Source: Planctomycetales bacterium
GTDB taxonomy: Bacteria > 4484-113 > JAFGCY01
Assembly: GCA_022646745.1 (NCBI GenBank)
Contig: CP060262.1
Location: 3,270,001-3,302,000, forward strand
Length of the DNA: 32,000 nt
Direction of reading: 5' to 3'
Part shown: piece after piece, positions 5,228 to 28,242 of the stretch
How the letters are laid out: each line of letters begins with the position of its first letter
How positions within the stretch are numbered: position 1 is the stretch's first letter
Translations under genes and position numbers: made by a program
The notes under the pieces: generated by a model
The model's input: only the letters and a program-made list of their open reading frames with translations
What the model was told of the DNA's origin: nothing
Database searches by the model: none

Positions 5228-5333
5228 TGGGCACAGGGTTCAGGCCTGCATGTTTAACGTTGAGGTTTGGACAGTTGCCGGAGTAGGCCCGCTCCCAGCG
5301 GCCTTCTGACTTGCTATTCAAAGGGGAAAAGCT

Positions 5334-5407
5334 TACGGGGGGAGGGTCTCGAACCCACGACCTCCAGATCCACAATCTGGCGCTCTAACCAACTGAGCTA
5401 CCCCCGC
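5334..5407 (-). tRNA. tRNA-His (anticodon GTG), without an encoded G-1 or CCA
   Basis: The reverse complement folds by hand into a cloverleaf: GCGGGGG TA GCTC AGTTGGTTA GAGC G CCAGA TTGTGGA TCTGG AGGTC GTGGG TTCGAGA CCCTC CCCCCGT A. It has T8, A14, GG in the D-loop and a TTCGA T-loop. Anticodon-loop positions 34-36 are GTG. There is one U:U mismatch in the T-stem (50:64) and a G1:U72 pair. Confidence 0.85.
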
Positions 5408-5458
5408 GTGGGGACAGGAATTATACCGTTATATCCCTTGATTGAACAGACGGGCAGA

Positions 5459-6619
5459 CTAAGCCCCGGCGGCTTCCGCGTTGATCAGCTCCACGATCTT
5501 CTGTGCACCGGCCCACATGCTGTCCACGAATACCAGAGGCTTGTTGCTGCCCTCGAGGATCTCCTTGGCCAGCTCCTCTCGTGTACCGGTCAGGCGGATC
5601 ACGATCGGCACCTTGCGCTCCAGCTTGTCGTACACGTCCACGATGCCCTGGGCGACAAGGTCCGTGCGGGTGATGCCGCCGAACACATTGATGAAGATGC
5701 CCTTCACATCCGGGTCGCGCAGCACAGCGATCAGCGCCTTCTGCACACCTTCCGCAGTAGCGGAACCACCGAAGTCGAGGAAGTTGTTGGGCGTGCCGCC
5801 GGCGCGCTTCACGACATCCATCGTGGTCATCACCAGGCCTGCACCGTTGCCGCAGATGCCGACGTTGCCGCCTGGCAGGTGCACATAGGTCAGGCCCTCT
5901 TCCTTGGCCTGCACCTCATACTCATCCAGCTCGGAGCCAGCCTCACGCAGCTCGGCGATCTCCTTCTGGCGATAGAGCGCATTGTCATCAAAGTTCATCT
6001 TGGCGTCGATGGCAACAACCTCACCCTGCTTGGTGATCACCAGCGGGTTGATCTCTGCCATTTCAGCATCGGTCGCCATGAAGCAGTCATACAGCTTATC
6101 GATGAAGCTGGCGATGGCGCGGGCCTTGGAGGTGTCCACGCCACTCATGTAGACCGCCTGGCGGATTTCGTAGTCCTGGATGCCGACGGTCGGGTCAATG
6201 TTGACCTTGGTGATCTTCTCGGGGGTACTGGCAGCAACTTCCTCGATGTCCACGCCGCCCGCCGCACTGATGATCAGCACCACACTCTTGTCCTCACGGT
6301 TGAGCGTGAAGCCGAGGTAGTACTCGGTTTCAATGTCCACTGCATCTGCGACAAGTACACGGTCCACGGTCAGGCCCTTGATCTCCATCCCGAGGATGTT
6401 CTGCGCGACGGCGAAAGCCTCGTCCGGGGTCTTGGCCAGCTTGACACCGCCGGCCTTGCCTCGGCCGCCGGCATGCACCTGGGCCTTGACGACCACCATG
6501 CGGCCGATCTTCTCGGCGATGGCCTTGACTTCCTCCGGCGTACGCGCCAGCTCCCCGTGGTTGGTCGGGATGCCGAACTTGCTCATGATTTCGCGTGCCT
6601 GGTACTCGTGGATCTTCAT
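5459..6619 (-). CDS. sucC: Succinate--CoA ligase (ADP-forming) beta subunit
   Basis: 386 aa. MKIHEYQAREIMSKFGIP... and VVKAQVHAGGRGKAGGVKLA are the classic SucC N-terminal ATP-grasp signatures. The C-terminal half has GNVGICGNGAGLVMTTMD and NVFGGITR. Confidence 0.95.
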   Translation of the reverse strand: MKIHEYQAREIMSKFGIPTNHGELARTPEEVKAIAEKIGRMVVVKAQVHAGGRGKAGGVKLAKTPDEAFAVAQNILGMEIKGLTVDRVLVADAVDIETEYYLGFTLNREDKSVVLIISAAGGVDIEEVAASTPEKITKVNIDPTVGIQDYEIRQAVYMSGVDTSKARAIASFIDKLYDCFMATDAEMAEINPLVITKQGEVVAIDAKMNFDDNALYRQKEIAELREAGSELDEYEVQAKEEGLTYVHLPGGNVGICGNGAGLVMTTMDVVKRAGGTPNNFLDFGGSATAEGVQKALIAVLRDPDVKGIFINVFGGITRTDLVAQGIVDVYDKLERKVPIVIRLTGTREELAKEILEGSNKPLVFVDSMWAGAQKIVELINAEAAGA

Positions 6620-6819
6620 CTCAGGTCCTGTCTGGGGGTTTTGCCGCGCAAATTATAGCGCGGGGCTTGTGCATGGAACGGAGTGTGCACGGACTTAACA
6701 ATGGAAGGTCCTAATTTTATTGATACATAGATCTCATTAAACAATAAATGAGGTTTTTCGTCCCTAATGCATGCCGGGCATAAACCTATATTGGTAATGT
6801 GCTAGGCTATCGTGAGTCT

Positions 6820-7326
6820 ATGGGAATCTCAGGTACAGTTCGCATAATGGCAATCCTGCTTGCAGGTCTGCTATTCATGCAGCTGGATCCCGGTGGTGCG
6901 GTGGTCTGCCTGGCGGACAATGGCCGCATGAGCTACAGCTTCAGCTGTACCTGTGACCTGCCCGGTGAACACAAGGGTGGATGCTCCGCCTGCTCCGATA
7001 TCCATGCAGATGCCACAAACGCCAAGGCGGAGACAACTGGTCATTCCTGCTGCGACAAGAGTGATTCCAATTCCAAAGAAGACACACCCAGCCACAAGGG
7101 CTGCTGCCACAATTTCCGCATTGAGCTGATCGCCAGCGCTGGACCGCAGCTGGCCGCACCACAGTGGGAACAGGCCAGCCAGCAGTTGCCTGGACCGGTA
7201 ATCCTTACCGAGCTGGTATCTGCTGACTGGAGCGAGGCACGGCACATGGCCGACTTGCCTCCACCGCTACCTGAACGATCAGAATCCCCAACTTCCCTAC
7301 TCTCCTGCGTCCGGCTGCTGCTTTAG
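6820..7326 (+). CDS. Cys/His-rich exported protein, putative metal-binding accessory protein of the efflux operon
   Basis: The track ORF starts at a GTG (6799). The first ATG is at 6820 and the next at 6847, so the start is uncertain. Signal/TM segment IMAILLAGLLFMQL, then CxC, CxxC, CC and CCH clusters (SFSCTCDLPGEHKGGCSACSDIH...GHSCCDKS...HKGCCHNF). Same strand as the OMF gene and 91 nt upstream of it. Confidence 0.5.
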   Translation: MGISGTVRIMAILLAGLLFMQLDPGGAVVCLADNGRMSYSFSCTCDLPGEHKGGCSACSDIHADATNAKAETTGHSCCDKSDSNSKEDTPSHKGCCHNFRIELIASAGPQLAAPQWEQASQQLPGPVILTELVSADWSEARHMADLPPPLPERSESPTSLLSCVRLLL

Positions 7327-7417
7327 GCCGCCTGGTCGACGCCAGCCACCCCTGACCCATCACGTATCATCACGTGACAGCTGGGCCGCCAGTGTGCGGC
7401 CTGAGGAGAGCAAGCGG

Positions 7418-9106
7418 ATGCAGACTGACCTGCGCCTGGCAATGCTCATGGGGCTGATCCTGCTGCTGATCCTTCCACTTCGCACTGAAGCGAGCGAGTA
7501 CACCTCAGTGGAAATTGGCAGCACACGCCAGTACCTGCGCAACCAGGCCACAAGCCAGCCGAAACACTACCTGCCAGACGATGAAGCGCTGGATGCGCGC
7601 ATCGGCACGGTGATCGGCAATATGGATGAACTGCTGGCGGCATTGCATGCATTGCCGCCGGAGCTGGGCAGCGAGGATCTCTCGCGTGTAATCAACCATG
7701 AAGAGCTGTTGGAACTCGTTGATATAGCACTGGATAACAATCCCGAATTGCGTCCATATCGTACTCAACTAGGGATCCAGGCTGCGCGCACCCGCCAAGC
7801 TGGTGCAAAGCAGGATCCGATGCTGATGTTCAGCCTGATGAATTTTCCGGCACCACAGTTTCCGATAGATGATTCACCCATGACTATGATCCAGATTGGC
7901 GTCAGTCAGGGTTTTGAGGGCTATGGCAAGCGCAAGCTCCGCCGAAACATCAACAACCTCGAAGAACAGCTCACCCAGTATTCATTGGCACAGCGTGAAC
8001 TGGATCTCGTCGGACAGGTCAGCGATGTCTACTTCATGATGATGGAAACGACTGCCCGGCTGCAGATCCTCGATGAAAACATCGAATTGATGCAGGTCCT
8101 GATCGAACTGGCCGGCGTGAAAGCCGGACTGGGCCAGACCAGCCAGGCAATGCTGATCGACAGCCAGCTTGAACTGAGCATGCTGACCGAGCGTCGTGTG
8201 TTGCTCAACTCCATGCTGTCCAAGCAGCGCAATGAACTGAAGGGGCTGCTTGGCAACGATCCGCGACTTGATGGGATGGAGCTCCAGCTTACCGCAAGCT
8301 ATCCGCTGACACATTCACCGGTGATTGACAACGCCGCGCTTTATAGCGAGAGCCTCGAGCGCCGACCGGACTACCTGAAGCTCGATCTAATGGAGTATCA
8401 GCAGGACCTTATGGTTGAGCTTGCTTCACGCGGGTACCGCCCCGATTACACCATCAGCACCAGCATCGGCCTGCAATGGGGTATGCGCAACATGGTTTCG
8501 GCCGGCATCACAATCCCGTTGTTCACCAACAAGGAGGAACGGCAGGACGCCATGGTTCAGGAAGCACGCGCCGAACGCGCACTTGTGGACGACATGAAGG
8601 CAGAATTGACCAATAACCTTGAGACGCAGATCACCGGCCTCGAACTTGCCCTGGCGGAGGACAGCGAGATCATTGATCTTTACCGCGACGTACTGGTACC
8701 ACAGGCCCGGCTTGGTCTCGAGAGTGAGCTGCGCAGCTATGCCGCTGAGGGTGCAGAACTTGACGAACTGGTCAAGAGCCAGCTTGGCCTGCTCAACCTG
8801 CAGCAGGAACTCGAGCTGCGCAACATCAGCTACCTTGCCAACCTTGCGCGGCTGCAGATACTGACGGCAGGAGCGTTCGACCCGGCACCCTACCTGCTGG
8901 GAGAACCGGCAATCTCTGACCTGGTTGACGGAGTCAGTGAACTGGCCCGCCAGGCTGCGGCTAGCGCTGCGGAGGAAACGGTGGCCAGGGAAGTCAATCC
9001 ATTCATCGAGGAGCTGGATCTGCCCGATGACATTCCGCCGATCAGCTACCACGACGACGACATCACCGACACCAGTAATGGTGGCAATGGAGAAGGCAGT
9101 GACTGA
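7418..9106 (+). CDS. cusC: TolC-family outer membrane efflux factor (CusC/CzcC-like)
   Basis: The ATG at 7418 is preceded by GAGGAGAG; the track starts at a GTG at 7394. Signal peptide MQTDLRLAMLMGLILLLILPLRTEA. OEP-type repeats: LLELVDIALDNNPELRPYRTQLGIQAARTRQAG..., LYSESLERRPDYLKL. Long coiled-coil segments. There is no lipobox Cys. The acidic C-terminal tail ends ...HDDDITDTSNGGNGEGSD. Confidence 0.85.
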   Translation: MQTDLRLAMLMGLILLLILPLRTEASEYTSVEIGSTRQYLRNQATSQPKHYLPDDEALDARIGTVIGNMDELLAALHALPPELGSEDLSRVINHEELLELVDIALDNNPELRPYRTQLGIQAARTRQAGAKQDPMLMFSLMNFPAPQFPIDDSPMTMIQIGVSQGFEGYGKRKLRRNINNLEEQLTQYSLAQRELDLVGQVSDVYFMMMETTARLQILDENIELMQVLIELAGVKAGLGQTSQAMLIDSQLELSMLTERRVLLNSMLSKQRNELKGLLGNDPRLDGMELQLTASYPLTHSPVIDNAALYSESLERRPDYLKLDLMEYQQDLMVELASRGYRPDYTISTSIGLQWGMRNMVSAGITIPLFTNKEERQDAMVQEARAERALVDDMKAELTNNLETQITGLELALAEDSEIIDLYRDVLVPQARLGLESELRSYAAEGAELDELVKSQLGLLNLQQELELRNISYLANLARLQILTAGAFDPAPYLLGEPAISDLVDGVSELARQAAASAAEETVAREVNPFIEELDLPDDIPPISYHDDDITDTSNGGNGEGSD

Positions 9107-10274
9107 CAGCCACGACGAGACACAGGAAGAGCTCTTCTACGAGGAGGCGCCGCGCAGCAGTGTTTCTGAGGCTGTTGGCGTGTTCATCGCGCTGCTGGCG
9201 TTGTGCATCGTCGGCTACGGTGGCTACGTCTGGTTGACACCGGGCATGGAGCTTGGCGACATCCTCAGGCGCGAAGGACTTTCGCCCAAGGACGGCGTGG
9301 AGAACCTGACATCCGAACAGGGAAAATCCGTCGCCATTGAGGATGAACGCTGTCCGCAGTGCGGCATGTATTCCTTGCGCAGCATTGCAGCGGTGCACGC
9401 CAGCTTTGCTGACGGCAGCAGCGGCTACTTCGACGGCTGGGGCTGCGTTGCCAACTGGGCTACGGAGCACTCCACGACCCTGGCCGATGCCAAGACGCGG
9501 GACATTGCCAGTGCGGACCGCGATCCGCAGTGGATTGACGCGGCGAGCGCTGCGTACCGCTATGGCACTGACAAGCTCAGCGGCAGCATGGCACCATTCG
9601 TAGCCTCCTATGCCACGCCTGGCATGGCTGCTGACGATGCTAGGCGCGGCGGCGAGGTGATGGACTACCCGGCCCTGCTCAGCGAACTCGGCATCGCAGC
9701 TTCTACGAACTCCATGGGTGCTGAAATCACCAATGACCCTGCAAAGCTGGACACAGCTGGTGAGATGCAAATGGATGGCGCGATGGAAAGCATGGACCAC
9801 ATTGGGCACGACCATGCAGCCAGGGATGGTGCAGACAAGGGAATGCCGGCTGCCGATAAGGACTCCAGCACTGTGACCGCTTCCGGCAGCCTGTACAACA
9901 AGGCCGGCTTCAGTGACTCATCCTGCCAGTACTGCGGGATGTTCGCTGACAAGAGCCTGACTCATGTCGTCGTGCGCTGGCAGGACGGCAGTTACACGCA
10001 GCACGACAGCTTCGACTGCGTGTTCAACCTGATGGCGGACGAGGCTCGCAGCATCGATGCCATCCAGTTCACCGCATATGAAGTTGACAACCCAGGCAGC
10101 CACTGGCTTGATGCCAGTACCGCCTGGTTCCTGTACGACACAGACACCGTCAAGGGCTCCATGCCGCCATATGTGGCGGGATTCGCGAGCCGCTCGGATG
10201 CCGAAAACGCCCAGGCTGGACTGGGTGGCCAACTGCTCGATTACAACGGGCTGGCTGCCATGTGGCAGCAGTAG
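9078..10274 (+). CDS. Membrane-anchored protein with two NosL-like (copper chaperone) modules and a Met/His-rich linker
   Basis: The track ORF starts at 8925, inside cusC. The likely start is the ATG at 9078 (MVAMEKAV...), overlapping the cusC stop by 29 nt. TM anchor VGVFIALLALCIVGYGGYVWL. Module 1: CPQCGM (9351-9368) ...KLSGSMAPFVASYATPGMAADDARRGGEVMDY. Module 2: CQYCGM (9924-9941) ...VKGSMPPYVAGFASRSDAENAQAGLGGQLLDY. This matches my memory of NosL (CxxCGM ... KGxMG..FA....A......GG.V..F). Linker: MQMDGAMESMDHIGHDH. Confidence 0.75.
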   Translation: MVAMEKAVTDSHDETQEELFYEEAPRSSVSEAVGVFIALLALCIVGYGGYVWLTPGMELGDILRREGLSPKDGVENLTSEQGKSVAIEDERCPQCGMYSLRSIAAVHASFADGSSGYFDGWGCVANWATEHSTTLADAKTRDIASADRDPQWIDAASAAYRYGTDKLSGSMAPFVASYATPGMAADDARRGGEVMDYPALLSELGIAASTNSMGAEITNDPAKLDTAGEMQMDGAMESMDHIGHDHAARDGADKGMPAADKDSSTVTASGSLYNKAGFSDSSCQYCGMFADKSLTHVVVRWQDGSYTQHDSFDCVFNLMADEARSIDAIQFTAYEVDNPGSHWLDASTAWFLYDTDTVKGSMPPYVAGFASRSDAENAQAGLGGQLLDYNGLAAMWQQ

Positions 10275-10294
10275 CATTACCCAAGGAGAACGAT

Positions 10295-10930
10295 ATGTAC
10301 AAGTATCTGATCGCCATGCTGGCCATGGTCATCTTCGCAACCGCCGCCTGGGCTCAGAAGGATGATGAGCCGATCCGCTGCGACACCTGCGGCATGTTCT
10401 GTGAGAAGAGCAGCACGCGGATGCAGATGGAACTCAACATCGATGGTGAAAAGGGCCTCTATCACTTCGAATCCCTCGGATGTGTCTTCAACAAGATGGC
10501 TGAACTCAAGGAAGGCGGCGCCAAGGAAATCAAGGTTGCCAATGCCATGATCCTGGACTACAGCACCTTCGGCACGGACGACGAGCAGATGCTCGACCCG
10601 CACGAGGCCTGGTACCTGGTGGGAACAAGCCGGCTGAAGGGAAGCATGGCCCCCTTCATCGCAGCATTCGCAACAAAGGACATGGCTACTTCGATGCAGG
10701 ATGAGCTCGGCGGGGAAGTGATGGACCACGACAGCATGGCCGCACAGATGGTCGGCGATGACGAAGACCGCAAGCATGATGGGCACGACGATGGCAGTAA
10801 GGAGATGCACGCGATGGCGGACGTCTACATCTGCCCCTGCAGCGGTGGCTGTTGTGACGACATCAAGAGCGACAAGCCGGGTGAATGCCCCAAGTGCGGC
10901 ATGCAGCTGGTCAAGAAGGAAGACAAGTAG
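10295..10930 (+). CDS. Exported NosL-like module fused to a His/Met-rich linker and a C-terminal CPxCGM heavy-metal-binding module
   Basis: ATG at 10295 with AAGGAG 7 nt upstream; the track starts at 10262. Signal peptide MYKYLIAMLAMVIFATAAWA. NosL pattern: CDTCGM (10379-10396) ...LKGSMAPFIAAFATKDMATSMQDELGGEVMDH. Linker: DEDRKHDGHDDGSKEMHAM. The C-terminal YICPCSGGCCDDIKSDKPGECPKCGMQLV (10826-10912) resembles the HMBD of CusB-like adaptors. Confidence 0.8.
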   Translation: MYKYLIAMLAMVIFATAAWAQKDDEPIRCDTCGMFCEKSSTRMQMELNIDGEKGLYHFESLGCVFNKMAELKEGGAKEIKVANAMILDYSTFGTDDEQMLDPHEAWYLVGTSRLKGSMAPFIAAFATKDMATSMQDELGGEVMDHDSMAAQMVGDDEDRKHDGHDDGSKEMHAMADVYICPCSGGCCDDIKSDKPGECPKCGMQLVKKEDK

Positions 10931-10939
10931 GAGCAATCC

Positions 10940-12388
10940 ATGCGGGTTTCACCGGCACTGATGACTTTCCTGACCGGACTGCTGCTGCTCAGCATCGCCG
11001 GCATCCTCTACCAGCATTCACTGGTCGAAAGTGGCGCGTATGGCACAGGCGACTCAACTGAGGCAGCGGCTCCCGCTGCCAATGTGAAATATGCCTGCCC
11101 GATGCGCTGCGTGGAGGCTGACAAGCCGGGCGACTGCCCGGTATGCGGGATGGAGATGATGCCGGTGGAACTCGACACACCTGCCAGCCTGGCTGCAAGC
11201 ACCTCAGCCGAGCAGGAGTACACATGTCCAATGCATCCGCAGATCGAGCAAGACCATCCCGGCACCTGCCCGATCTGCGGCATGGAACTCGTGCTCAAGG
11301 CGAATGACAGTGCGGCGGTCGATCCGGCGGTGGCCGAGAGCGTTGCCGCAGTGAAGATCAGTCCGCTGCAGGGCCTGCTGGCAGATGTGCAGGTGGCAAT
11401 GCCTGAAAAGCGGATGGTCAGCCGCAGCGTGGATGCAATCGGCGAGGTGGAGGTACCGGAGGATCGCATCAACATGGTTGTCAGCTGGCAACCAGGCCGG
11501 ATTGATAACCTCGAGCTGGCTGAGACCGGGGTGAGGGTCAGCAAGGGCCAGCACATCATGGACATCTACAGCGAGGAGCTGGTACGCGCGCAGGAGGAAT
11601 ACCTGATCGCACTGCGCGCACGTGACCAGCTGGGTGACAGCAGCTACGACTACATCGCCGACAGTGGCAAGCAGCTGCTGAGCAGCGCAGAGTCGCGCCT
11701 GACAAGGCTTGGCTTCACGGCCGCCCAGCTTACGGCACTTGCAGAGACCAAGGAGACCAGTGAACACATCCCGCTGAGCAGCGCATATGACGGCATCGTG
11801 CTTGGCAAGTATGTCAACGAAGGCGACTACGTGATGGAGGGCAGCAAGCTCTACCAGGTCGCCGACCTGTCTGAGCTCTGGGTGCAGATGGAAGTTTTTG
11901 AGGAGGACAGTGCCGGCCTGATACCCGGCATGAAGATCAAGCTGGACTGCCCGGTGCATCCGGGCATGGTGTTCAACGGTGAACTTGAGCTGATTGAACC
12001 GATGCAAAGTGACATGACAAGGACGCAACTAGCTCGTGTCAGGGTTGCCAATCCTGACATGATCCTGAGGCCGGGCATGCTGGTTCGCAGCAGCTTCCAG
12101 CTGGACCGCCACGAAGCACTGATGGTTGTACGCAATGCGGTTCTGCAGACCGGTGATGGAGCTATCGTCTATGTTGCCCGCGATGGCGGTATGTGGGAAC
12201 CGCGTAACGTGACAACTGGACTGATCGACGGCGACATGATTGAAATCACGGCTGGACTGGCCGAGGGAGAGGGCGTGGCCTCAACAGCGGTGTTCCTGCT
12301 GGACAGCGAAGCCCAGATCAAGGGCATTCCGCGCATTGATGAAAACGCAATTGAAGAGGAATCACACAGTGCCGCACACGTGCACTGA
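10940..12388 (+). CDS. cusB: Efflux RND periplasmic adaptor (membrane fusion protein, CusB-like) with two N-terminal heavy-metal-binding modules
   Basis: AGGAG lies upstream of the ATG at 10940. N-terminal TM segment. HMBD-like modules: YACPMRCVEADKPGDCPVCGMEMMPV (11090-11167) and canonical YTCPMHPQIEQDHPGTCPICGMELV (11219-11293). The rest shows MFP architecture: lipoyl/hairpin region (SGRIDNLE-type WQPGRIDNLELAETGVRVSKGQHIMDIYSEELVRAQEEYL), beta-barrel region and a C-terminal domain. Confidence 0.9.
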   Translation: MRVSPALMTFLTGLLLLSIAGILYQHSLVESGAYGTGDSTEAAAPAANVKYACPMRCVEADKPGDCPVCGMEMMPVELDTPASLAASTSAEQEYTCPMHPQIEQDHPGTCPICGMELVLKANDSAAVDPAVAESVAAVKISPLQGLLADVQVAMPEKRMVSRSVDAIGEVEVPEDRINMVVSWQPGRIDNLELAETGVRVSKGQHIMDIYSEELVRAQEEYLIALRARDQLGDSSYDYIADSGKQLLSSAESRLTRLGFTAAQLTALAETKETSEHIPLSSAYDGIVLGKYVNEGDYVMEGSKLYQVADLSELWVQMEVFEEDSAGLIPGMKIKLDCPVHPGMVFNGELELIEPMQSDMTRTQLARVRVANPDMILRPGMLVRSSFQLDRHEALMVVRNAVLQTGDGAIVYVARDGGMWEPRNVTTGLIDGDMIEITAGLAEGEGVASTAVFLLDSEAQIKGIPRIDENAIEEESHSAAHVH

Positions 12389-12402
12389 ACAAAGATAGAC
12401 AG

Positions 12403-15400
12403 ATGACAGACAAACAGCTGGAATCATCAGAGCAGCACAGGCAAACGGAACCGAAGGGCTTCTTCCCTGCCCTGATCGGCTACTGCGTGGACAATCCCTT
12501 CATCGTGCTGCTGTGCGTCGCACTGGTGGCCCTGCTCGGATACAGTACGATCCAGAACACAAAGCTCGATGCATTGCCTGACCTGTCTGACAACCAGGTG
12601 ATCGTACTGGCGGACTGGCCGGGGCGAGGGCCGAAGGTGATGGAGGACCAGGTGGCCTACCCGCTGACTACCTCGCTATCCGCCCTGCCCCATGTCGCTG
12701 ACATCCGTTCGATGTCCAACTTCGGCTTCTGCATGATCTACATCATCTTTGACGACAGTGTGGACATCTACTGGGCACGCACCCGCGTCAGTGAGCGCCT
12801 GACCACGATCGGCTCCGACCTGCCGGATGGAGTGGTACCCCGGCTTGGCCCCGAAGGAACCGGCGTCGGACATGTCTACTGGTACCTCGTAACCAATGAC
12901 GACGACCCGGCAACGCCGCAGCATGATCTAGCCGAACTGCGCAGCATCCAGGACTGGTACATCCGCTACCAGCTGGCCACTGTTCCCGGTGTTGCTGAAG
13001 TGGCCAGTGGCGGCGGTTTCAAGCGGGAATACCACGTTGACATCCTGCCTGAGGAGATGCGGCGCTACGGCATCAACCTGATGCAGTTGACGAAGGCGCT
13101 GAAGGAAAACAACATGGATGTCGGTGGCCGCCTGCTCGAGCAGAGCGACACCGAGTTCTTCGTCCGCAGTGAGGGCTACTACGGCAAGCGCAATGGACAG
13201 TTCGTCAGCCCCGAGCAGGTGATCGAGGATATCGGCAATACGGTGATCACGCATACGAAGGAAGGCGTGCCCGTACTGCTGAAACAGATTGCGATGGTGC
13301 AGCTCGGCACCGCCGTACGCCGCGGTGTGATCGACCACAACGGCGAGGGCGAAGCGGTGACCGGCATCATCGTGATGCAGTACGGCCAGAATGCCCAGAG
13401 CGTGATCAATGCAGTCAAGGAGAAACTGGACGACATCCGTCGTGGGTTGCCGCCCGGCGTGAAAATCGAGACCGCGCATGACCGCTCCTGGCTGATCGGC
13501 AAGAGCCTCGAGACCCTAAAGCATGCCCTCAGGGAAGAAGCCGTGGTCGTTTCGATCGTGATTATCCTTTTCCTGCTAAGCCTGCGTCCCAGCCTGGTTG
13601 TTGTGCTGACCCTGCCGATTGCCGTGCTGATCGGCTTTATCGGCATGAATGCGCTGGGGATAACGAGCAACATCATGAGCCTTGGTGGCATCGCGATTGC
13701 GATTGGCGTGATCGTGGACGATGGCATCGTGATGGTTGAGAACTGCCATGCCCATCTGGCAAAGCTATGGGAGCGCTGCAAGAAGCAGGGTCGCAAGCCA
13801 ACACCGAATGAGATTACCCAGACTATCAAGTACGCGGCCCAGCAGGTCGGTAAGCCGGTGTTCTTCACCACGCTGATCATCATCACGAGCTTCGGGCCGG
13901 TGTTCTTCCTTACCGGTTCCGAAGGCAAGCTATTCACCCCGTTGGCATACACCAAGAGCCTGGTGATGCTTGCCAGTGCGGTGATGGCGGTCACTCTGGT
14001 TCCCGTGCTGATGCGGATGCTGATGCGCGGACGGATGCTGCCGGAGGAGCATAACCCGCTTTCAAGATTCTTCAACTGGCTGTACATGGGTCCGCTGAAA
14101 TTCTGCCTGCAACTGCGCTGGCTCGCAGTGGCAATCGCCATTGCAAGCCTGTTCGCCACATGGCCGGTCTACAAATCTCTCGGCAATGAGTTCATGCCCA
14201 ACCTCAATGAGGGTGAACTGGTCTATATGCCCACCACCCTGCCAAACGTGACGACGACAGAGGCAAAGCGGCTACTGCAACTGACGGACAAGATTATGTA
14301 CGAACATCCACTTGTCGCCAATGTCGTCGGCAAGGTCGGGCGCGCGGATACAGCCACAGACCCGGCCCCCGTCAGCATGATAGAGACCTTCGTGCAGTTC
14401 TACCCCCGCGAGGACTGGGGCAAGATCGATCCAAAGTACGAGAACTACACCATTGGTGATATCCGCAATGACCTCGATAAGGCGATCCGAGTGCCGGGCC
14501 TGACCAACGGCTGGACGATGCCGATCATCAACCGCATCCAGATGCTGGCAACCGGCGTGCGCACGGACATCGGCATCAAGATTTACGGGGACGACACGGA
14601 GGAGCTGGCCCGGCTGGCTGTCGAAGCCAGCCACATAGCCGAAAAGGTGCCCGGTGTGAAGGACGTGTTCGCCGAGCGACTGAGCGGTGGCCGCTACCTT
14701 GATGTTGACATTGACCGTGAGGCCGCGGCGCGCTACGGCCTGAACATCGGTGATGTACAGGAACAGGTTGAACTGCTGATTGGCGGCATGAAACTCACGC
14801 GTACCGTGGAAGGACGCGAGCGCTACAACGTGCAGGTACGCTATGCCAGTGCCTACCGTGATAACGTGCAGGTGATGGAGGACACGCTGATCGAGACCCC
14901 GCACCAGGGCGTGATCCCGCTCAGCAGCGTGGCGACGATGCGTTACAGCAGCGGGCCGCCCTACCTTGCCAGTGAGAACAGCCTGTTGCGCACCGTGGTG
15001 TTTGCCAACATCCGTGACCGTGACATTGGTGGCACAGTTGAGGAGCTGGAAGCCACACTGGACCGAGAGCTGGATCTTCCGCAGGGCTATTACTTCCGTA
15101 TCGCGGGCCAGTGGGAGAACATCACCCGCGCCCGCGCCCGCCTTGCCTTGCTGATCCCGGCCGTACTGATGATCATCTTCATCTTCCTCTACCTGACATT
15201 CGATAGCCTGTGGGACACGTTGATTGTCTACGTCTCCCTGCCCTTCGCCTTCACCGGCGGCATCTGGTACCTGCACCTGCTTAACATGAATATCTCAGTG
15301 GCCGTCTGGGTGGGATTCATCGCCCTGTTCGGAATGGCTGTCAACACCGGTGTGCTGATGATCGTCTACCTGCAGGAGGCACTGGACAAGCGCCTGGAGA

Positions 15401-15675
15401 AGGGCTGGCTGCGACCCGGTGACATCTACTCCGCCACCATCGAAGGAGCCGGACGGCGTGTACGCCCTAAGCTGATGACCGTCAGCACTTCCCTGATCGG
15501 CCTGTTGCCCCTGATGTGGGCCACGGGAATCGGCAGCGATGTGCTGAAACCAATTGCCGCGCCGCTGATCGGTGGCCTGGCCAGTTCCACCATCATGGTG
15601 CTGTTCATCATCCCTGTGCTGTTTTTCTGGGAACGCAGCTGGCAGTTGCGCAAACTCGTCAGGCGGGAGGAATAG
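12403..15675 (+). CDS. cusA: Heavy-metal efflux RND pump, CusA-type (Cu(I)/Ag(I))
   Basis: 1090 aa with a 12-TM RND layout. The TM4 motif is SLGGIAIAIGVIVDDGIVMVEN, which is the monovalent type and not the DFG..DGA..VEN of CzcA. Met609 (14227), Met659 (14377) and Met714 (14542) lie in LVYMPTTLP, APVSMIETF and NRIQMLATG. By eye these contexts correspond to the E. coli CusA Met573/Met623/Met672 metal site. Confidence 0.9.
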   Translation: MTDKQLESSEQHRQTEPKGFFPALIGYCVDNPFIVLLCVALVALLGYSTIQNTKLDALPDLSDNQVIVLADWPGRGPKVMEDQVAYPLTTSLSALPHVADIRSMSNFGFCMIYIIFDDSVDIYWARTRVSERLTTIGSDLPDGVVPRLGPEGTGVGHVYWYLVTNDDDPATPQHDLAELRSIQDWYIRYQLATVPGVAEVASGGGFKREYHVDILPEEMRRYGINLMQLTKALKENNMDVGGRLLEQSDTEFFVRSEGYYGKRNGQFVSPEQVIEDIGNTVITHTKEGVPVLLKQIAMVQLGTAVRRGVIDHNGEGEAVTGIIVMQYGQNAQSVINAVKEKLDDIRRGLPPGVKIETAHDRSWLIGKSLETLKHALREEAVVVSIVIILFLLSLRPSLVVVLTLPIAVLIGFIGMNALGITSNIMSLGGIAIAIGVIVDDGIVMVENCHAHLAKLWERCKKQGRKPTPNEITQTIKYAAQQVGKPVFFTTLIIITSFGPVFFLTGSEGKLFTPLAYTKSLVMLASAVMAVTLVPVLMRMLMRGRMLPEEHNPLSRFFNWLYMGPLKFCLQLRWLAVAIAIASLFATWPVYKSLGNEFMPNLNEGELVYMPTTLPNVTTTEAKRLLQLTDKIMYEHPLVANVVGKVGRADTATDPAPVSMIETFVQFYPREDWGKIDPKYENYTIGDIRNDLDKAIRVPGLTNGWTMPIINRIQMLATGVRTDIGIKIYGDDTEELARLAVEASHIAEKVPGVKDVFAERLSGGRYLDVDIDREAAARYGLNIGDVQEQVELLIGGMKLTRTVEGRERYNVQVRYASAYRDNVQVMEDTLIETPHQGVIPLSSVATMRYSSGPPYLASENSLLRTVVFANIRDRDIGGTVEELEATLDRELDLPQGYYFRIAGQWENITRARARLALLIPAVLMIIFIFLYLTFDSLWDTLIVYVSLPFAFTGGIWYLHLLNMNISVAVWVGFIALFGMAVNTGVLMIVYLQEALDKRLEKGWLRPGDIYSATIEGAGRRVRPKLMTVSTSLIGLLPLMWATGIGSDVLKPIAAPLIGGLASSTIMVLFIIPVLFFWERSWQLRKLVRREE

Positions 15676-19211: not shown

Positions 19212-22200
19212 ATGCATTCTTACTCAACGAGGCAAATCCAGCTTGCAGTACTTCTGTTCTGTATTGCTTTAACATCAGCCTGCGGTGGTGGCAGCAATGG
19301 TTCCATAGACCAACCGGCTGCCGAGAAAGCTGCTAACTTCAAACCTGTTTCAGATGTACTGGCGGAGATCGAATCCACGCCCGTTCCAGAGGGAGTTGAT
19401 CCCGACCTCCACCGCCAGTTGAAGCAAGCTCTCGCTGAATACATCGAAGCAAATTATCCTGGCAGGATAGGCAGTGCGGCACCTACTGGAGTGGCCGGCA
19501 GGGTAACGGAAATTTCACTGGCTGATGGAACACTTCGCTGGACCTACCGGAATGCCGGTGATTACAACGGCGACGGGCAGGTGACAATCAATGACCTGAC
19601 CAACATCGGCCTGCATTACCAGAAGACCCCACTCTCAGAGGACTGGGCCAGGGCCCGCAGTGCAGATGGCAATGGCGACGGGGAAATCAACATCGGTGAC
19701 ATCACGCCGATGGGCCAGAACTACCTGTCGGATGTGGCTGGTTACAAGGTGCTCAATGGAGACTCTGAGACTTCATCACTTGTGGAACTGGCTGATGTGA
19801 AACTGGAAGAGGCAGTTGTGGACAGTGATCCACTGATCTTTGAAGTTGGTATCGACACCGCCGCACTAACCGGGATGCTGTTTGTAATGCCCTACGATTC
19901 CGCAGGCGGGACGGGTGAACTGAGCAAGGGTATCCCTGTCGGCGGTGGATCATCGATTGACAGCATACCTGGATCCAGCAGTGATCCGCTTGCCAACCAC
20001 ATCAGCACATATTCACCTCCGGCTCCCCCTGCCAGTGACTTTACCCAGGACACTGCACGCAGCGGACTGTTTATATCTCGCACCCGCTTCGTGGTCTGCA
20101 TGCAGCCAGATGTCAGCGTTGGCGAAACCAACCTGCTGCTCAGCCAGGTTGGCGGGCGGGTGATTGGCGCGATGACAGGCATCAACATGCTGGTGATTGA
20201 GGTGGACGACCCCGGCGACCTGAGCCGGGTGCACAACGCAATTGACACCTTCGATGCCAGCCCGCATGTGCTGCTTGCCGTCGAGGACTGCCTGATGTCA
20301 ACGCTAAACGTAAACAATCCCAGCAATGACAGTGACTCCAGCGTCTTTGGACTGGCGAACCAGGCCGTACCGAACCCCTGGCGCTGGGACTGGCCGCCAT
20401 CCGAAAACGGTGTCAGCGTGAATGGCAACTGGGGAATTGAAGCGGTGCGCGCGCCCTTCGCCTGGAATCTGTTTGATTATGGCCGGCGCCAGGGAGACCC
20501 GGCCCGCACCATCGTGCTGGACACCGGATTCAACAATGCCCACAACGATGATGAACTGGACAACCTTTCACTGAAGACAGTTGATGGCAATGACGTGATT
20601 GACGGCTTCACACTGGGAGCCCATGGCTCTCATGTGGCCGGGACGGTCGGAGCCCCGCATTACAACAATGCAGGGGTCGCCGGGATGAACCCGTTGTTCC
20701 AGTTCGTAGACGTTGATGACGAACTGTGGGTCGGCATGACCTGCCGCATCTCCAGTTTCAACGGCGGCACCTACCAGGGCCGGGAGACCTGCTTTGACAG
20801 CACGGTGTTTGACATCTTCTTCGCCTGGGATGAATGGAATGATGTGGCAGTGGTCAACACCAGCCTCGGGTACAACTGGGCCAACGCGGGGATAGACACC
20901 GCCGCCACTGAACGTGCGCGCGAGCTGGCACGGGACCAGGGCATGATCATGCGCTACATCGCATTCGTGGAAAATGCCAAGCTGCTGTGTACAGCGGCCG
21001 GCAATGACAGCACAGGCTCAAATGGCTGGCCCACCGAGCAGGATGCTGTCTGGGCCAGTCCGATGTGCTGGGCTGCGCTCGATCCGGAGATTGCCTGGCC
21101 TGACTATCTCGACCTGGGCCCCTCAGCCAACATCATCGTGGTTGAGTCCAGCCAGGCCATCGTGGCGGACAACACCCTCAGTGAGAACAGCTGGCAATAC
21201 ACCAAGAGTGACTTCAGCAATGTCGGGGGCCATGTGTCCGCCCCCGGAAGCGACATCCTCAGCGTGGTCGGCAATAACCTCAATGACCGCAACGGCAACC
21301 CCTACCAGGACTATGAGACCTTCAGCGGAACCTCAATGGCCACGCCACTCGTAACCGGTCTCGTCAGCTACATTGCGAGCCTCGCACCTGACCTGGATGC
21401 GGGCCAGATCCGCAGCCTGCTTACCGATGCCGGCAACACCCGTCCTGTGGCACTCGAACAGGGTGCCACCCTGCCGGCGGGCATTGATGCCCCAGCGCGC
21501 CAGGTGGATGCCTTCGCCGCAGTGACCTCGATCGATGATGAGCGGGGCAACCGCGAGATCCAGCGTGCACTGGTGGATGTTGACGATGGCACACGCGATG
21601 GCAACCTGCGCACCAGGGTATGCGACGATGCAGGGTACACCAACCCGATGGACCCGGACCCGGATGGCATCGAAACCGCTGACCAGCGGCGCGGGGACGG
21701 CGAAACCACCATGAAGGATTTCCGTGCCTTCAGGGATGCCTGGCTGTATGCGGCCTATGACCATTTCAGCGCAGAGGTTGACCTCGACGGCAACTTCGAG
21801 CAATTCAAGAAAGACTTCAACTTTGACGGTGCGGTGCAGTACATGAGCCGAAACGGACGCGCTGCAGCTCCACCCCACCCGCTTGATATTCCAACGGCAA
21901 CTGTATTGAATGATGTGATATTTGAGGACCGCTTCAGCCGCTACGACTTCAACGGTGACGGGCAGCTGGCAGACTGGTCGGCAACTGCGCCTTATCGCAT
22001 CGCCTGTACGACGGCAGCCGGCAGCAATCCGACTTCCGCAGTCAACCAGGTGCCCGGCATGGTACGCGACCTTGATGTGATGCTGTCCGCCGGAAACTGG
22101 CAATCACGGGACATTCTCTACGAGCAGAATGGTGATCCCGAATACTTCGAGAACATCTCCATCCTTCCTGCAGACGAGGGAATGATCACCAGCCAACACT

Positions 22201-23642
22201 GGTCACCGAAACGCTACCTGCTGGAAAACCGGGATGCATCAGCAGCCGTGGACCAGCTATACAAGGACACCCCCGATTACCTGCAGTCCTGTGACATCCA
22301 TTTCAACCTGGACTGGAGCTACCTGCTGCTTGGTGGCAGCAACAGTGTGGAGATCACCGTCACAAGCGAAATCGACGGCGTGGTGGACCCATTTGTCCGC
22401 ACCGCCACCTTCAAACCCAGCGATCCCTGGAAATTCGTTCTGACCGTACCGATCTGGAGCAACACCATCAACATCGACTGGAACAGCAACGGAGGCTTCA
22501 GCAGCAACACTGACCTCAACGTGAAGCTTGGCAGTGATGTGCCCTATCGCATCAACAGCTTCTATCAGGTGCCCGGCATCACCAAGCAGTGGACTACCGC
22601 CACGCCACGCCTCGAGCCGGTACTGTGGTACCGGTATCTCGGGGCCGGAGAAGGCTACCGCCTGCACACGATCTTTGCCGAGGACAAGGGCAATGACAAC
22701 TTCGACATCAACTACAGCATGATGCAGTCCACCGATGGCCTCTGGTCAGATCCAAAGGTGGTGGCAAATGCGGACGGGCTGGTGATGATGGCCGGTGCTG
22801 ACCTGTATGGCTTCCCGGCCATTGTCTTCAGCAACTCAGATGGGCAACTGCTCTTCAAGACAACAGTTGACGGGAATGACTGGGACAGCCATGACCGCAC
22901 GATAGATACCGGGGCTGACTTCGACTTCGCCCAGCTTGGCTTCCTGCAGCATGGTGGCGAACAGAATTTCATCGTCTGGAGCAAGGGCAATGGAGTGGAT
23001 GGCAACAGCGTCTATTTCTCGCGCAGCAACGACTTCACAGCCTACACCTGGGCGGCACCACAGGAAATCGGCAAGGGACATGCCCCCGCGCTTGCAAGCA
23101 TTGACAATGCTGACGGCCTGTTCCTCGTGATGTTCGACCCGCTGGCCGGTGCGATCGGTTCTGCCGTCAAGCTGTTCCAGTGGAACACCGGCATGACCAG
23201 TTTCGGCACACCCGACCCACTTCCGCTGGATGGGATCCTGTGGAATGCGGGAGAGCAGATATCCGGTGATATCGGCAGCTTCAACGGCAATGCAGGCCTC
23301 GTGGTGCGTTTTGGCAATGAAATGTACTGGTTTGATGGCATTGACGGTGAGTCCATCGATCATCATTTCGTCGGCAATTACAACGGACAACTGGACAGCT
23401 GGATCCGACCACAGGTGTTCAACGTAACAGGCAAACCGGCCGTGTTCATCATGGGCCTTGTGTACCAGTCGCAGGACACATCAGGGATAGGCTGGGAGAA
23501 TGCCGTCGTGCTCGATACTCGTGGCACTGAGCCCAGCCGCAACCTGATGCGCATTCGAGGGCATGAAACGGGTCTGCTGTCATGCGAGTTCTTCGATGAA
23601 GGTCTCGACAGACTGGTGGTGCAGACAGATTTCCTGCACTGA
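19212..23642 (+). CDS. Large S8 (subtilisin-like) serine peptidase lipoprotein with an N-terminal dockerin-like module, an I9-like propeptide and a long C-terminal region with BNR-like repeats
   Basis: GGGAG lies upstream of the ATG. Signal peptide with Cys24 (LTSA-C-GGGSNGSIDQP). Duplicated Ca-binding segments: DYNGDGQVTINDLTNIG and DGNGDGEINIGDITPMG. Catalytic triad contexts: VLDTGF (Asp437, 20520), GAHGSHVAGT (His471, 20622), FSGTSMATP (Ser708, 21333), plus TAAGNDS. Further DxDxDG-like segments: DPDPDG, NFDGAV, DFNGDGQLADW. The C-terminal roughly 450 aa carries S/TxDGxxW-like repeats (STDGLWSDP, TVDGNDWDS). Confidence 0.85.
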   Translation: MHSYSTRQIQLAVLLFCIALTSACGGGSNGSIDQPAAEKAANFKPVSDVLAEIESTPVPEGVDPDLHRQLKQALAEYIEANYPGRIGSAAPTGVAGRVTEISLADGTLRWTYRNAGDYNGDGQVTINDLTNIGLHYQKTPLSEDWARARSADGNGDGEINIGDITPMGQNYLSDVAGYKVLNGDSETSSLVELADVKLEEAVVDSDPLIFEVGIDTAALTGMLFVMPYDSAGGTGELSKGIPVGGGSSIDSIPGSSSDPLANHISTYSPPAPPASDFTQDTARSGLFISRTRFVVCMQPDVSVGETNLLLSQVGGRVIGAMTGINMLVIEVDDPGDLSRVHNAIDTFDASPHVLLAVEDCLMSTLNVNNPSNDSDSSVFGLANQAVPNPWRWDWPPSENGVSVNGNWGIEAVRAPFAWNLFDYGRRQGDPARTIVLDTGFNNAHNDDELDNLSLKTVDGNDVIDGFTLGAHGSHVAGTVGAPHYNNAGVAGMNPLFQFVDVDDELWVGMTCRISSFNGGTYQGRETCFDSTVFDIFFAWDEWNDVAVVNTSLGYNWANAGIDTAATERARELARDQGMIMRYIAFVENAKLLCTAAGNDSTGSNGWPTEQDAVWASPMCWAALDPEIAWPDYLDLGPSANIIVVESSQAIVADNTLSENSWQYTKSDFSNVGGHVSAPGSDILSVVGNNLNDRNGNPYQDYETFSGTSMATPLVTGLVSYIASLAPDLDAGQIRSLLTDAGNTRPVALEQGATLPAGIDAPARQVDAFAAVTSIDDERGNREIQRALVDVDDGTRDGNLRTRVCDDAGYTNPMDPDPDGIETADQRRGDGETTMKDFRAFRDAWLYAAYDHFSAEVDLDGNFEQFKKDFNFDGAVQYMSRNGRAAAPPHPLDIPTATVLNDVIFEDRFSRYDFNGDGQLADWSATAPYRIACTTAAGSNPTSAVNQVPGMVRDLDVMLSAGNWQSRDILYEQNGDPEYFENISILPADEGMITSQHWSPKRYLLENRDASAAVDQLYKDTPDYLQSCDIHFNLDWSYLLLGGSNSVEITVTSEIDGVVDPFVRTATFKPSDPWKFVLTVPIWSNTINIDWNSNGGFSSNTDLNVKLGSDVPYRINSFYQVPGITKQWTTATPRLEPVLWYRYLGAGEGYRLHTIFAEDKGNDNFDINYSMMQSTDGLWSDPKVVANADGLVMMAGADLYGFPAIVFSNSDGQLLFKTTVDGNDWDSHDRTIDTGADFDFAQLGFLQHGGEQNFIVWSKGNGVDGNSVYFSRSNDFTAYTWAAPQEIGKGHAPALASIDNADGLFLVMFDPLAGAIGSAVKLFQWNTGMTSFGTPDPLPLDGILWNAGEQISGDIGSFNGNAGLVVRFGNEMYWFDGIDGESIDHHFVGNYNGQLDSWIRPQVFNVTGKPAVFIMGLVYQSQDTSGIGWENAVVLDTRGTEPSRNLMRIRGHETGLLSCEFFDEGLDRLVVQTDFLH

Positions 23643-25542: not shown

Positions 25543-27780
<2,238 letters not shown>

Positions 27781-28242
27781 CTAGTTATCCTGCTGCTTCT
27801 GCAAGCAGTCTTTGCAGATGCCATGCACTTCCACCTGCGTGGCATTGATGCTGCCAAATTCCGAAACCGCTTCAGGGATGCGCAGCTCGTTCAGCTCACT
27901 GCTCTTGAAGTCACGCGCCAGTCCGCAACGCAGGCAGACGTAGTGATGATGTGGTTCGGGATTGGCATCGAAGCGGATGCTCTCTCGCTTGGGACCGAGT
28001 GTGGAAACCATGCCAAGGTCGGTCAGCAGCCAGAGCGTGCGGTAGACCGTGTCATGCGACAGGGTCGGCATGCGCGGGCTGAGCGCCTTGTGGACGGCCT
28101 CTGCACTGGGGTGGTCAACACTGGATGCGACTTCGCGGAAGATTTCGATGCGCTGGTGTGTGAGTTTGATCCCGGCGGCCTTTGCAGCCTGCTTGAACAA
28201 CTCTATCCTGCGATCCACTTCCTGACTCTCTACTTTAAACAT
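27781..28242 (-). CDS. Fur-family transcriptional regulator, PerR-like by context
   Basis: 153 aa. A winged-helix region (LTHQRIEIFREVASSVDHPSAEAVHKAL), then an HHHYVCLRCG...CKDC metal-site pattern with two CxxC pairs. It lies 48 nt upstream of katG on the same strand. Confidence 0.85.
   Translation of the reverse strand: MFKVESQEVDRRIELFKQAAKAAGIKLTHQRIEIFREVASSVDHPSAEAVHKALSPRMPTLSHDTVYRTLWLLTDLGMVSTLGPKRESIRFDANPEPHHHYVCLRCGLARDFKSSELNELRIPEAVSEFGSINATQVEVHGICKDCLQKQQDN

Follow-up and report, generated by a model that had tools for sequence, protein, structure and literature searches.

NosL-family proteins in the chaperone slot of a pump locus

The 32,000-nucleotide window analysed here (contig CP060262.1 of assembly GCA_022646745.1, positions 3,270,001 to 3,302,000 of the forward strand, from a Planctomycetales bacterium) carries a run of six genes that resembles the copper efflux operon cusCFBA, with proteins of the NosL family at the place where the chaperone CusF would be expected. 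The only function experimentally established for NosL in the literature is maturation of nitrous oxide reductase (N2OR). An earlier interpretation made from the letters of the window, which we call the sequence-only reading, proposed that NosL modules had been recruited as the metal donors of an efflux pump. It placed six open reading frames (ORFs) on the plus strand, joined by junctions of +91, −29, +20, +9 and +14 nt in order, and both coordinates and junctions agree with the ORF positions that we obtained:

6820..7326, plus strand: orf1, 168-aa Cys-rich protein, hydrophobic segment at the N-terminus (ORF and homologue alignment)
7418..9106, plus strand: TolC/OEP-family outer-membrane factor (OMF), 562 aa, signal peptide present (Pfam OEP)
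9078..10274, plus strand: inner-membrane-anchored double-NosL protein, 398 aa, or 391 aa from GTG 9099 (Pfam NosL, PF05573)
10295..10930, plus strand: secreted fusion of NosL and a heavy-metal-binding domain (HMBD), 211 aa (Pfam NosL and HMBD)
10940..12388, plus strand: CusB-like adaptor (membrane fusion protein, MFP), 482 aa, with an N-terminal anchor and two HMBDs (Pfam HlyD_D23 and HMBD)
12403..15675, plus strand: CusA-type permease of the heavy-metal efflux resistance–nodulation–division (HME-RND) family, 1090 aa (Pfam ACR_tran, TIGR00914)

The third of these genes is sound as an ORF, and its start codon is unsettled between ATG 9078 and GTG 9099. The alternative GTG start gives an 8-nt overlap with the OMF gene, as in relatives, and agrees with the NCBI model of 391 aa; the gene may begin there instead of at ATG 9078. 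All of the domain families that the sequence-only reading expected from a Pfam scan (NosL, HMBD, OEP, HlyD-type and ACR_tran) were obtained.

The absences that it listed were also reproduced. A phmmer search with E. coli CusF (E ≤ 10) of the six-frame translations of the window returned no CusF-like sequence, and none of the proteins of the module matched CusF_Ec (PF11604) in Pfam. Profile searches over the 32 kb found no nos, cusRS or cueR domains among the other large ORFs, so that the window holds no nosZ or nosDFY and no cusRS or cueR by this measure, and the 10 kb on either side of the module in the related loci, about 12 once redundant ones are set aside, likewise held no nos-related Pfam family.

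The NosL modules retain the published metal ligands

Together the two NosL-family proteins contain three NosL modules, two disordered linkers and one HMBD, arranged as follows:

9162..9236, plus strand: transmembrane (TM) anchor helix, residues 29–53 of the double-NosL protein (hydropathy, AlphaFold2)
9339..9692, plus strand: NosL module 1, C92-x2-C95-G-M97, D119-x3-C123, G-S-M171 (motifs, alignment)
9711..9869, plus strand: disordered Met/His/Asp-rich inter-module linker, residues 212–264 (predicted local distance difference test, pLDDT, below 50)
9912..10271, plus strand: NosL module 2, C283-x2-C286-G-M288, D310-x3-C314, G-S-M362 (motifs, alignment)
10367..10744, plus strand: NosL module 3, C29-x2-C32-G-M34, E59-x3-C63, G-S-M118 (HMMER alignment to 7og7_A)
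10745..10822, plus strand: disordered linker of the fusion protein, rich in His/Met/Asp, HDSMAAQMVGDDEDRKHDGHDDGSKEMHAMAD (residues 161–174 modelled with pLDDT below 50)
10823..10918, plus strand: Cys-rich HMBD of the fusion protein, VYICPCSGGCCDDIKSDKPGECPKCGMQLV (Pfam PF19335)

Against a gathering cutoff of 24 bits for NosL (PF05573), the anchored protein scored 58.5 bits in two stretches (E = 1.2e-15) and the fusion protein 47.4 bits (E = 3.1e-12). The HMBD of the fusion protein (PF19335, gathering cutoff 23.6 bits) scored 35.1 bits (E = 1.3e-08). Hydrophobic 19-mers of the anchored protein lie at residues 26–55, with a maximum Kyte–Doolittle (KD) value of 2.21, and its inter-module linker contains ...AGEMQMDGAMESMDHIGHDHAARDGADKGMP... 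between the two modules. The fusion protein has a cleavable signal peptide at residues 1–20, cut between AWA and QK. A lipobox was looked for in both proteins and found in neither.

The predicted structures agree with the family assignment. The sequence identity of both proteins to solved NosL structures is only about 20%. AlphaFold2 modelled the fusion protein with a mean pLDDT of 88 and the anchored protein as a TM helix at residues 29–53 followed by two modules at pLDDT 87–97. In Foldseek searches with both models the top six PDB matches were all NosL (probability 0.98–1.0), and 7og7 was matched at probability 1.0 with a TMt of 0.63 for the fusion protein and 0.69 for the anchored protein (root-mean-square deviation 2.7 Å). 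The fold of the reference family consists of two beta-beta-alpha-beta subdomains, and both models fit it by Foldseek. Pfam profiles, two AlphaFold models and Foldseek thus uphold the NosL and HMBD assignments of the sequence-only reading. Its description of the module at the end of the fusion protein as CPxCGM needs a correction: Pfam confirms an HMBD, with CPxCGM at residue 198, and the domain is a Cys-rich variant of the form YxCPCxGGCC...PGxCPxCGM, which is kept in 17 of 22 homologues.

The NosL of S. denitrificans holds Zn(II) through C59, C62, C88 and D92 and Cu(I) through C62, M64 and M145, and NosL sites take a single Cu(I); in clade II NosL, positions 88 and 92 are swapped (Prasser et al., PMC8457098). 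When the fusion protein was aligned to 7og7_A by HMMER, C29, C32 and M34 fell on C59, C62 and M64, E59 on C88, C63 on D92 and M118 on M145. All three modules keep CxxCGM, [D/E]xxxC and GSM, with the 88/92 arrangement swapped as in clade II. These ligand columns show no variation in three alignments, which hold 22, 14 and 18 homologues, the 18 covering module 1 and the 22 covering C29, C32, M34, C63 and M118 of the fusion protein. Each module therefore has the complete published ligand set, and the earlier count of three NosL and three HMBD sites in the locus is correct. From this retained Cu(I)/Zn(II) ligand set the NosL modules are predicted to bind metal.

A Cus-type adaptor and pump

The adaptor matched HlyD_D23 (E = 1e-56) and, in two stretches, HMBD (E = 1.6e-20, 73.2 bits). 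Among NCBIfam models it exceeded the cutoff for RND_mfp at 121 bits and matched the CusB model PRK09783 at E = 4e-30, under the cutoff; its identity to E. coli CusB is 26%. The motif YxCPM...CPxCGM occurs in it twice, as the sequence-only reading had noted, and both occurrences coincide with Pfam HMBD matches and fit the ligand pattern C/H-P-M...C-P-x-C-G-M of that domain:

11087..11164, plus strand: adaptor HMBD 1, KYACPMRCVEADKPGDCPVCGM (Pfam, motif, alignment)
11219..11293, plus strand: adaptor HMBD 2 (MAFFT alignment with E. coli CusB from NC_000913.3)

HMBD 2 matches WYDPMYPNTRFDKPGKSPFMDMDL of CusB, the M49/M64/M66 stretch, column for column, with Cys in place of Met64. This stretch of CusB is the site that receives Cu(I)/Ag(I) from CusF. 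At its other end the adaptor has a His-rich tail, EEESHSAAHVH (window 12340–12388), which resembles the C-terminus SESATHAH of E. coli CusB (our locus L022).

The pump matched ACR_tran at E = 9e-225 and scored 1055 bits against the CusA/CzcA model TIGR00914 of NCBIfam, for which the cutoff is 701 bits. Its top PDB match was E. coli CusA (E = 3.7e-268, 43% identity); the Zn pump ZneA followed at 8e-154. We aligned seven pumps of the clade of related loci described below to CusA, using the cusCFBA locus of NC_000913.3. The three-Met site is kept in all seven, with M609, M659 and M714 of the window pump aligned to M573, M623 and M672 of CusA. Also kept in all seven are E625, D405, E412, K984 and the Ala at 399 (CusA numbering), which correspond to E661, D439, E446, K1023 and A433 in the window. 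The motif of the fourth TM segment (TM4), AIGVIVDDGIVMVEN, begins at residue 433. Divalent pumps of the HME1/2 type carry a DFG-DGA-VEN signature (PMC3637150), which is absent from the clade pumps because Ala occupies CusA position 399. The monovalent-type TM4 of the sequence-only reading and the three-Met site, which it had matched by eye, are both borne out by the alignment. By sequence, pump and adaptor are Cus-type.

The full methionine relay of CusA (M271–M755, M403–M486, M391–M1009, M410–M501) is incomplete in the window pump, which keeps M391, M410, M486 and M501 and has V, K, I and L at the positions of M271, M755, M403 and M1009, respectively; E939 of CusA is replaced by Asn. Across the seven aligned pumps M271, M755, M403 and E939 are unconserved, whereas the loss of M1009 is a feature of the window pump. 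Because several of these residues are unconserved, the pump is of CusA type without being a close copy of CusA.

The OMF gave a Pfam OEP match in two stretches (E = 6.8e-17) and weak NCBIfam matches to IhpA, NodT and TolC. It has an N-terminal hydrophobic segment and no lipobox. The protein also carries an unusual acidic C-terminal extension (…HDDDITDTSNGGNGEGSD).

The module recurs in different gene neighbourhoods

Searching for close relatives of either NosL protein, we retrieved 21 loci (L001–L021), about 12 of them non-redundant; every close relative is a metagenome contig or a metagenome-assembled genome (MAG). As far as the contigs extend, the gene order in all of these loci is OMF, anchored NosL, soluble NosL, HMBD-bearing adaptor and RND pump, and in each of them the slot that follows the OMF gene and precedes the adaptor gene holds at least one NosL gene. 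What varies is the NosL content of that slot. The anchored protein carries either two modules or, in L007 and L018, one; the soluble NosL lacks the HMBD in L007, L020 has the anchored double-NosL protein only, and L012 has only an anchored NosL–HMBD protein.

At least five distinct gene neighbourhoods surround this core module. L001, L002 and L006 share the synteny of the window, including orf1. Other neighbours surround the module in L003, L007, L018/19, L020 and L021, where divergent genes for a BlaI/Penicillinase_R protein and a Peptidase_M56 protein replace orf1. These pairs all lie on the minus strand (L003 5518–6904, L007 6017–7394, L018 6681–8052, L020 6588–7931, L021 111–1492), and the M56 product always terminates in SRC[LF]CACYLGY. 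Because the M56 protein ends in a Cys cluster, the pair may be a metal-sensing regulator of the BlaR1/BlaI type. A search for a CxCx4CxC tail of the CopY type on the BlaI-like repressors in related loci was negative, the Cys cluster being on the M56 partner; a search of the window for BlaI/M56 homologues returned none. In L015, a fragment of a second, divergent RND permease (9858–10754, minus strand) lies about 4 kb 3′ of the NosL-linked pump, on the opposite strand.

A NosL-only profile run against 1.84 billion representative proteins matched 901 at E ≤ 1e-3, 136 at E ≤ 1e-10 and 39 at E ≤ 1e-30, and the high-scoring set shows the same three architectures as the retrieved loci. Two proteins just under the drop in score have other surroundings: the gene for P0099 adjoins one for a TonB-type (Plug-domain) receptor, that for P0098 sits among housekeeping genes, and no RND pump is near either. 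Because these two proteins outside the clade sit away from RND pumps, linkage to a pump is a trait of a small clade. P0099 (L023, 1098–6180) is a distant, secreted double-NosL protein of 364 aa, near the Plug-domain receptor gene and a CMD-family gene, and its neighbourhood is possibly a further context for NosL, in copper uptake. A tblastn search with the NosL module against 72,556 plasmids gave no match. The pattern GSMAPFIA, scanned over the GTDB species representatives, hit one locus, on the same contig as L003; either the family is rare or the pattern is too narrow. The 22-sequence NosL alignment was too divergent to serve as a seed for a scan of the collection.

A proposed copper relay and its alternatives

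We consider it reasonably probable that the module encodes a Cus-type system which exports Cu(I), and probably also Ag(I), and in which NosL proteins act as periplasmic donors in place of CusF. We infer this donor role from the order of the genes, the fused domains and the conserved ligands. It is suggested by the position of the NosL genes, which is invariant across unrelated neighbourhoods, by the retention of all Cu/Zn ligands, and by the fusion of a NosL module to the type of HMBD that forms the acceptor site of the adaptor. It is also suggested by the behaviour of canonical NosL, which docks on the periplasmic part of a transporter complex, NosDFYL, as seen in PDB structures 7osf–7osj and 7znq. 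The recruitment of NosL to an efflux pump, as the sequence-only reading had it, is thus supported by the slot in all related loci, the domain fusion and the ligands, and metal transfer itself is the conditional part.

In the relay that we propose, we infer the metal specificity, the direction of transfer, the protein–protein contacts and the part played by the tethered modules. The two TM-tethered NosL modules would capture Cu(I) close to the inner membrane, for instance on its release from a P-type ATPase or on its entry into the periplasm. The soluble NosL–HMBD protein would take Cu(I) at its NosL site, and its own C-terminal HMBD would pass the ion by ligand exchange to the homologous N-terminal HMBDs of the adaptor. 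Adaptor HMBD 2, at the place of the CusB Met-triad site, would forward the metal to M609, M659 and M714 of the pump, and it would leave through the OMF, powered by proton antiport (D439/E446/K1023).

Several points weigh against this account. A dedicated donor is dispensable in principle, since many Cus-like systems function without CusF. The host is an uncultured MAG, no metal-responsive regulator was found in the window, and in this genome the absence of nos genes was established for the 32-kb window, so that a nosZ elsewhere in the genome is possible. The pump departs from CusA in detail, with M271, M755, M403 and E939 unconserved. The behaviour of the swapped 88/92 site is not directly extrapolable, because a C88D/D92C swap abolished the function of S. 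denitrificans NosL (PMC8457098). Finally, the NosL proteins could be buffers instead of donors.

As buffers or sequesterers like SilE or PcoE, they would be co-expressed with the pump, reduce the amount of free Cu(I) and make no direct hand-over to adaptor or pump. Multiple high-affinity sites and disordered Met/His-rich linkers would suit storage, as would the tethering of one NosL protein to the inner membrane, and Cus-type pumps are able to work chaperone-free. Against this stand the strict conservation of the slot between OMF and adaptor, the binding of one Cu(I) by NosL sites (PMC8457098) and the presence on one NosL protein of a fused HMBD that is homologous to the adaptor's acceptor domain, which points to a specific partner over bulk buffering; we regard pure buffering as unlikely. 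Adaptor HMBD 2 corresponds to the N-terminal site of CusB, which has been discussed as a switch. The NosL and HMBD modules might accordingly be mainly sensors that gate pump assembly or opening, off the path of the substrate, in a window with no classical regulator. Three NosL and three HMBD sites exceed what a switch needs, however, and related loci have a separate candidate regulator pair (BlaI-like and M56), which makes a mainly regulatory role very unlikely.

The identity of the metal is a separate matter. The substrate might be a different soft metal, for instance Au(I), Hg(II) or Cd(II)/Zn(II), with the NosL modules adapted to it: the NosL fold is shared with MerB, a weak Foldseek match, the sites are Cys-rich with extra Cys in the HMBD of the fusion protein, Zn(II) is also bound at the NosL site (PMC8457098), and some methionine pairs of CusA are missing. 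But the pump has retained Ala at the A399 position as well as the three-Met site and lacks DFG-DGA-VEN, it matches CusA far more strongly than ZneA, and C62, M64 and M145, the Cu ligands of NosL, do not vary, so that a different metal seems distinctly unlikely. What we find least credible, and would put down as highly improbable, is that the NosL genes serve maturation of N2OR or another periplasmic cuproenzyme, their operon position coupling copper supply to stress. Maturation is the sole experimentally established role of NosL, NCBI names both proteins N2OR accessory proteins, and our nos search of this genome covered the 32-kb window. On the other side, nos genes are absent from the window and from ±10 kb in about 12 related loci, the lipoprotein anchor of canonical NosL is missing, the NosL genes are always linked to those for adaptor and RND pump, and one NosL carries a fused HMBD.

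A wider version of the donor account is more tentative, and we hold it at somewhat less than even strength. NosL in this form would be a general Cu(I) hand-off module that docks on transporter acceptors (NosD in one case, adaptor HMBDs in the other), with one clade dedicated to copper export. CusF would be fully replaced by a tethered relay from anchored NosL through NosL–HMBD and the adaptor HMBDs to the three-Met site. Control in most relatives would be of the BlaI/BlaR1 type, the CxCxC cluster of the M56 protein representing a previously undescribed kind of metal sensor.

orf1 and the surroundings of the module

The first gene of the run, orf1, has no Pfam and no NCBIfam match, and in a database of 5.8 billion proteins it matched two clusters. 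Nine Cys (C30, C43, C45, C55, C58, CC77-78 and CC95-96) and His97 are invariant in five homologues, and the C-terminus has a conserved LPPP...RLLL. The gene is kept 5′ of the OMF gene in the syntenic relatives L001, L002 and L006 only. We rejected it as a core component, as it is missing from every locus outside the window's own lineage. Where the sequence-only reading counted orf1 as part of the efflux operon, a real, Cys-rich gene stands and membership in the conserved module does not: orf1 is lineage-specific and lies outside the core.

Scans for sigma-70 promoters and terminators gave nothing over background, and neither did a search for inverted repeats 5′ of orf1 and of the OMF gene. The sole match in Rfam and tRNA scans of the window was a tRNA-His(GTG) gene (5334–5407, minus strand), which sits between ligA and sucC; these three make up the upstream flank of the module. 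We rejected as a gene the plus-strand ORF at 5267–6658, which is a shadow ORF because it overlaps the tRNA-His gene and runs antisense to sucC (5459–6619, minus strand).

The downstream flank encodes a CarboxypepD_reg-like protein, a PAP2 phosphatase, a pirin, a large subtilase, an aldo-keto reductase, a short-chain dehydrogenase/reductase (SDR), KatG and a Fur-family regulator. The subtilase (19212–23642, plus strand) has 1476 aa and a weak dockerin-type I match close to its N-terminus. The gene for the KatG-type catalase-peroxidase (25543–28242, minus strand) matched the peroxidase domain in two stretches, and the Fur-family gene lies immediately 5′ of it on the same strand. The pair looks like a PerR/Fur–katG oxidative-stress unit.

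Significance and comparison with known systems

Reviews and genome surveys treat NosL as a chaperone of N2OR only, although some homologues lie outside nos clusters and NosL is perhaps a more widely used chaperone (Prasser et al., PMC8457098). Our search of the literature outside subscription-only sources found no paper tying NosL to an RND/Cus efflux operon, and an earlier mention is possible. A Haloferax paper that names both NosL and RND was rejected as a precedent, as the two are unrelated iron-starvation-induced proteins there. The novelty most likely lies in the recruitment of a different chaperone family to a Cus-type pump, a component swap in a well-understood system within a small uncultured lineage.

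Should a clade of NosL prove to be a fixed part of Cu(I) efflux operons, the range of functions known for NosL would widen, and caution would be due in using nosL as a metagenomic marker of N2O-reducing potential. Automatic annotation calls the pump-linked NosL proteins "nitrous oxide reductase accessory protein", and such naming (window 9078–10274 and 10295–10930; P0001, P0023–P0026 and P0033) could inflate nosL-based estimates of N2O reduction. The locus would also be a natural experiment in the feeding of RND metal pumps, its shared HMBD and its tethered and soluble chaperones being suited to the study of a Cu(I) relay. The finding is testable and relevant to specialists in copper homeostasis and in N2O markers.

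Compared with E. coli CusCFBA, and the plasmid-borne SilCFBA, the locus has the same order of OMF, chaperone gene or genes, adaptor and RND pump. The pump is 43% identical to CusA, with the three-Met site, D405, E412, K984 and A399 kept, and the CusB-like adaptor has its N-terminal metal site at the equivalent alignment position and a His-rich C-terminus. The slot of CusF (PF11604), however, is filled by an anchored and a soluble NosL-family protein, the adaptor has two copies of a Cys-based HMBD as its metal site where CusB has a Met triad, and the OMF is no lipoprotein. Several relay methionines of CusA are unconserved in the window pump, and there is no cusRS, relatives having a BlaI-like/M56 pair instead.

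With the NosL of N2OR assembly (S. denitrificans, 7og7) the modules share the Pfam family, the fold, the Cu ligands Cys62/Met64/Met145 and the Zn ligands, and they share the 88/92 swap with clade II NosL. Canonical NosL is an outer-membrane lipoprotein, whereas the window proteins are TM-anchored or soluble, their modules are tandem-duplicated or fused to an HMBD, and their genes belong to an RND efflux operon that has no nos genes in its vicinity. HMBD-bearing CusB-type adaptors and P-type ATPases offer the third comparison: the adaptor has their YxCPM...PGxCPxCGM module, and the fusion protein has an HMBD as well. Unlike in those proteins, an HMBD is here also borne by a separate soluble chaperone, in a Cys-enriched form (CPCxGGCC), and because of this the putative donor and its acceptor have the same type of domain.

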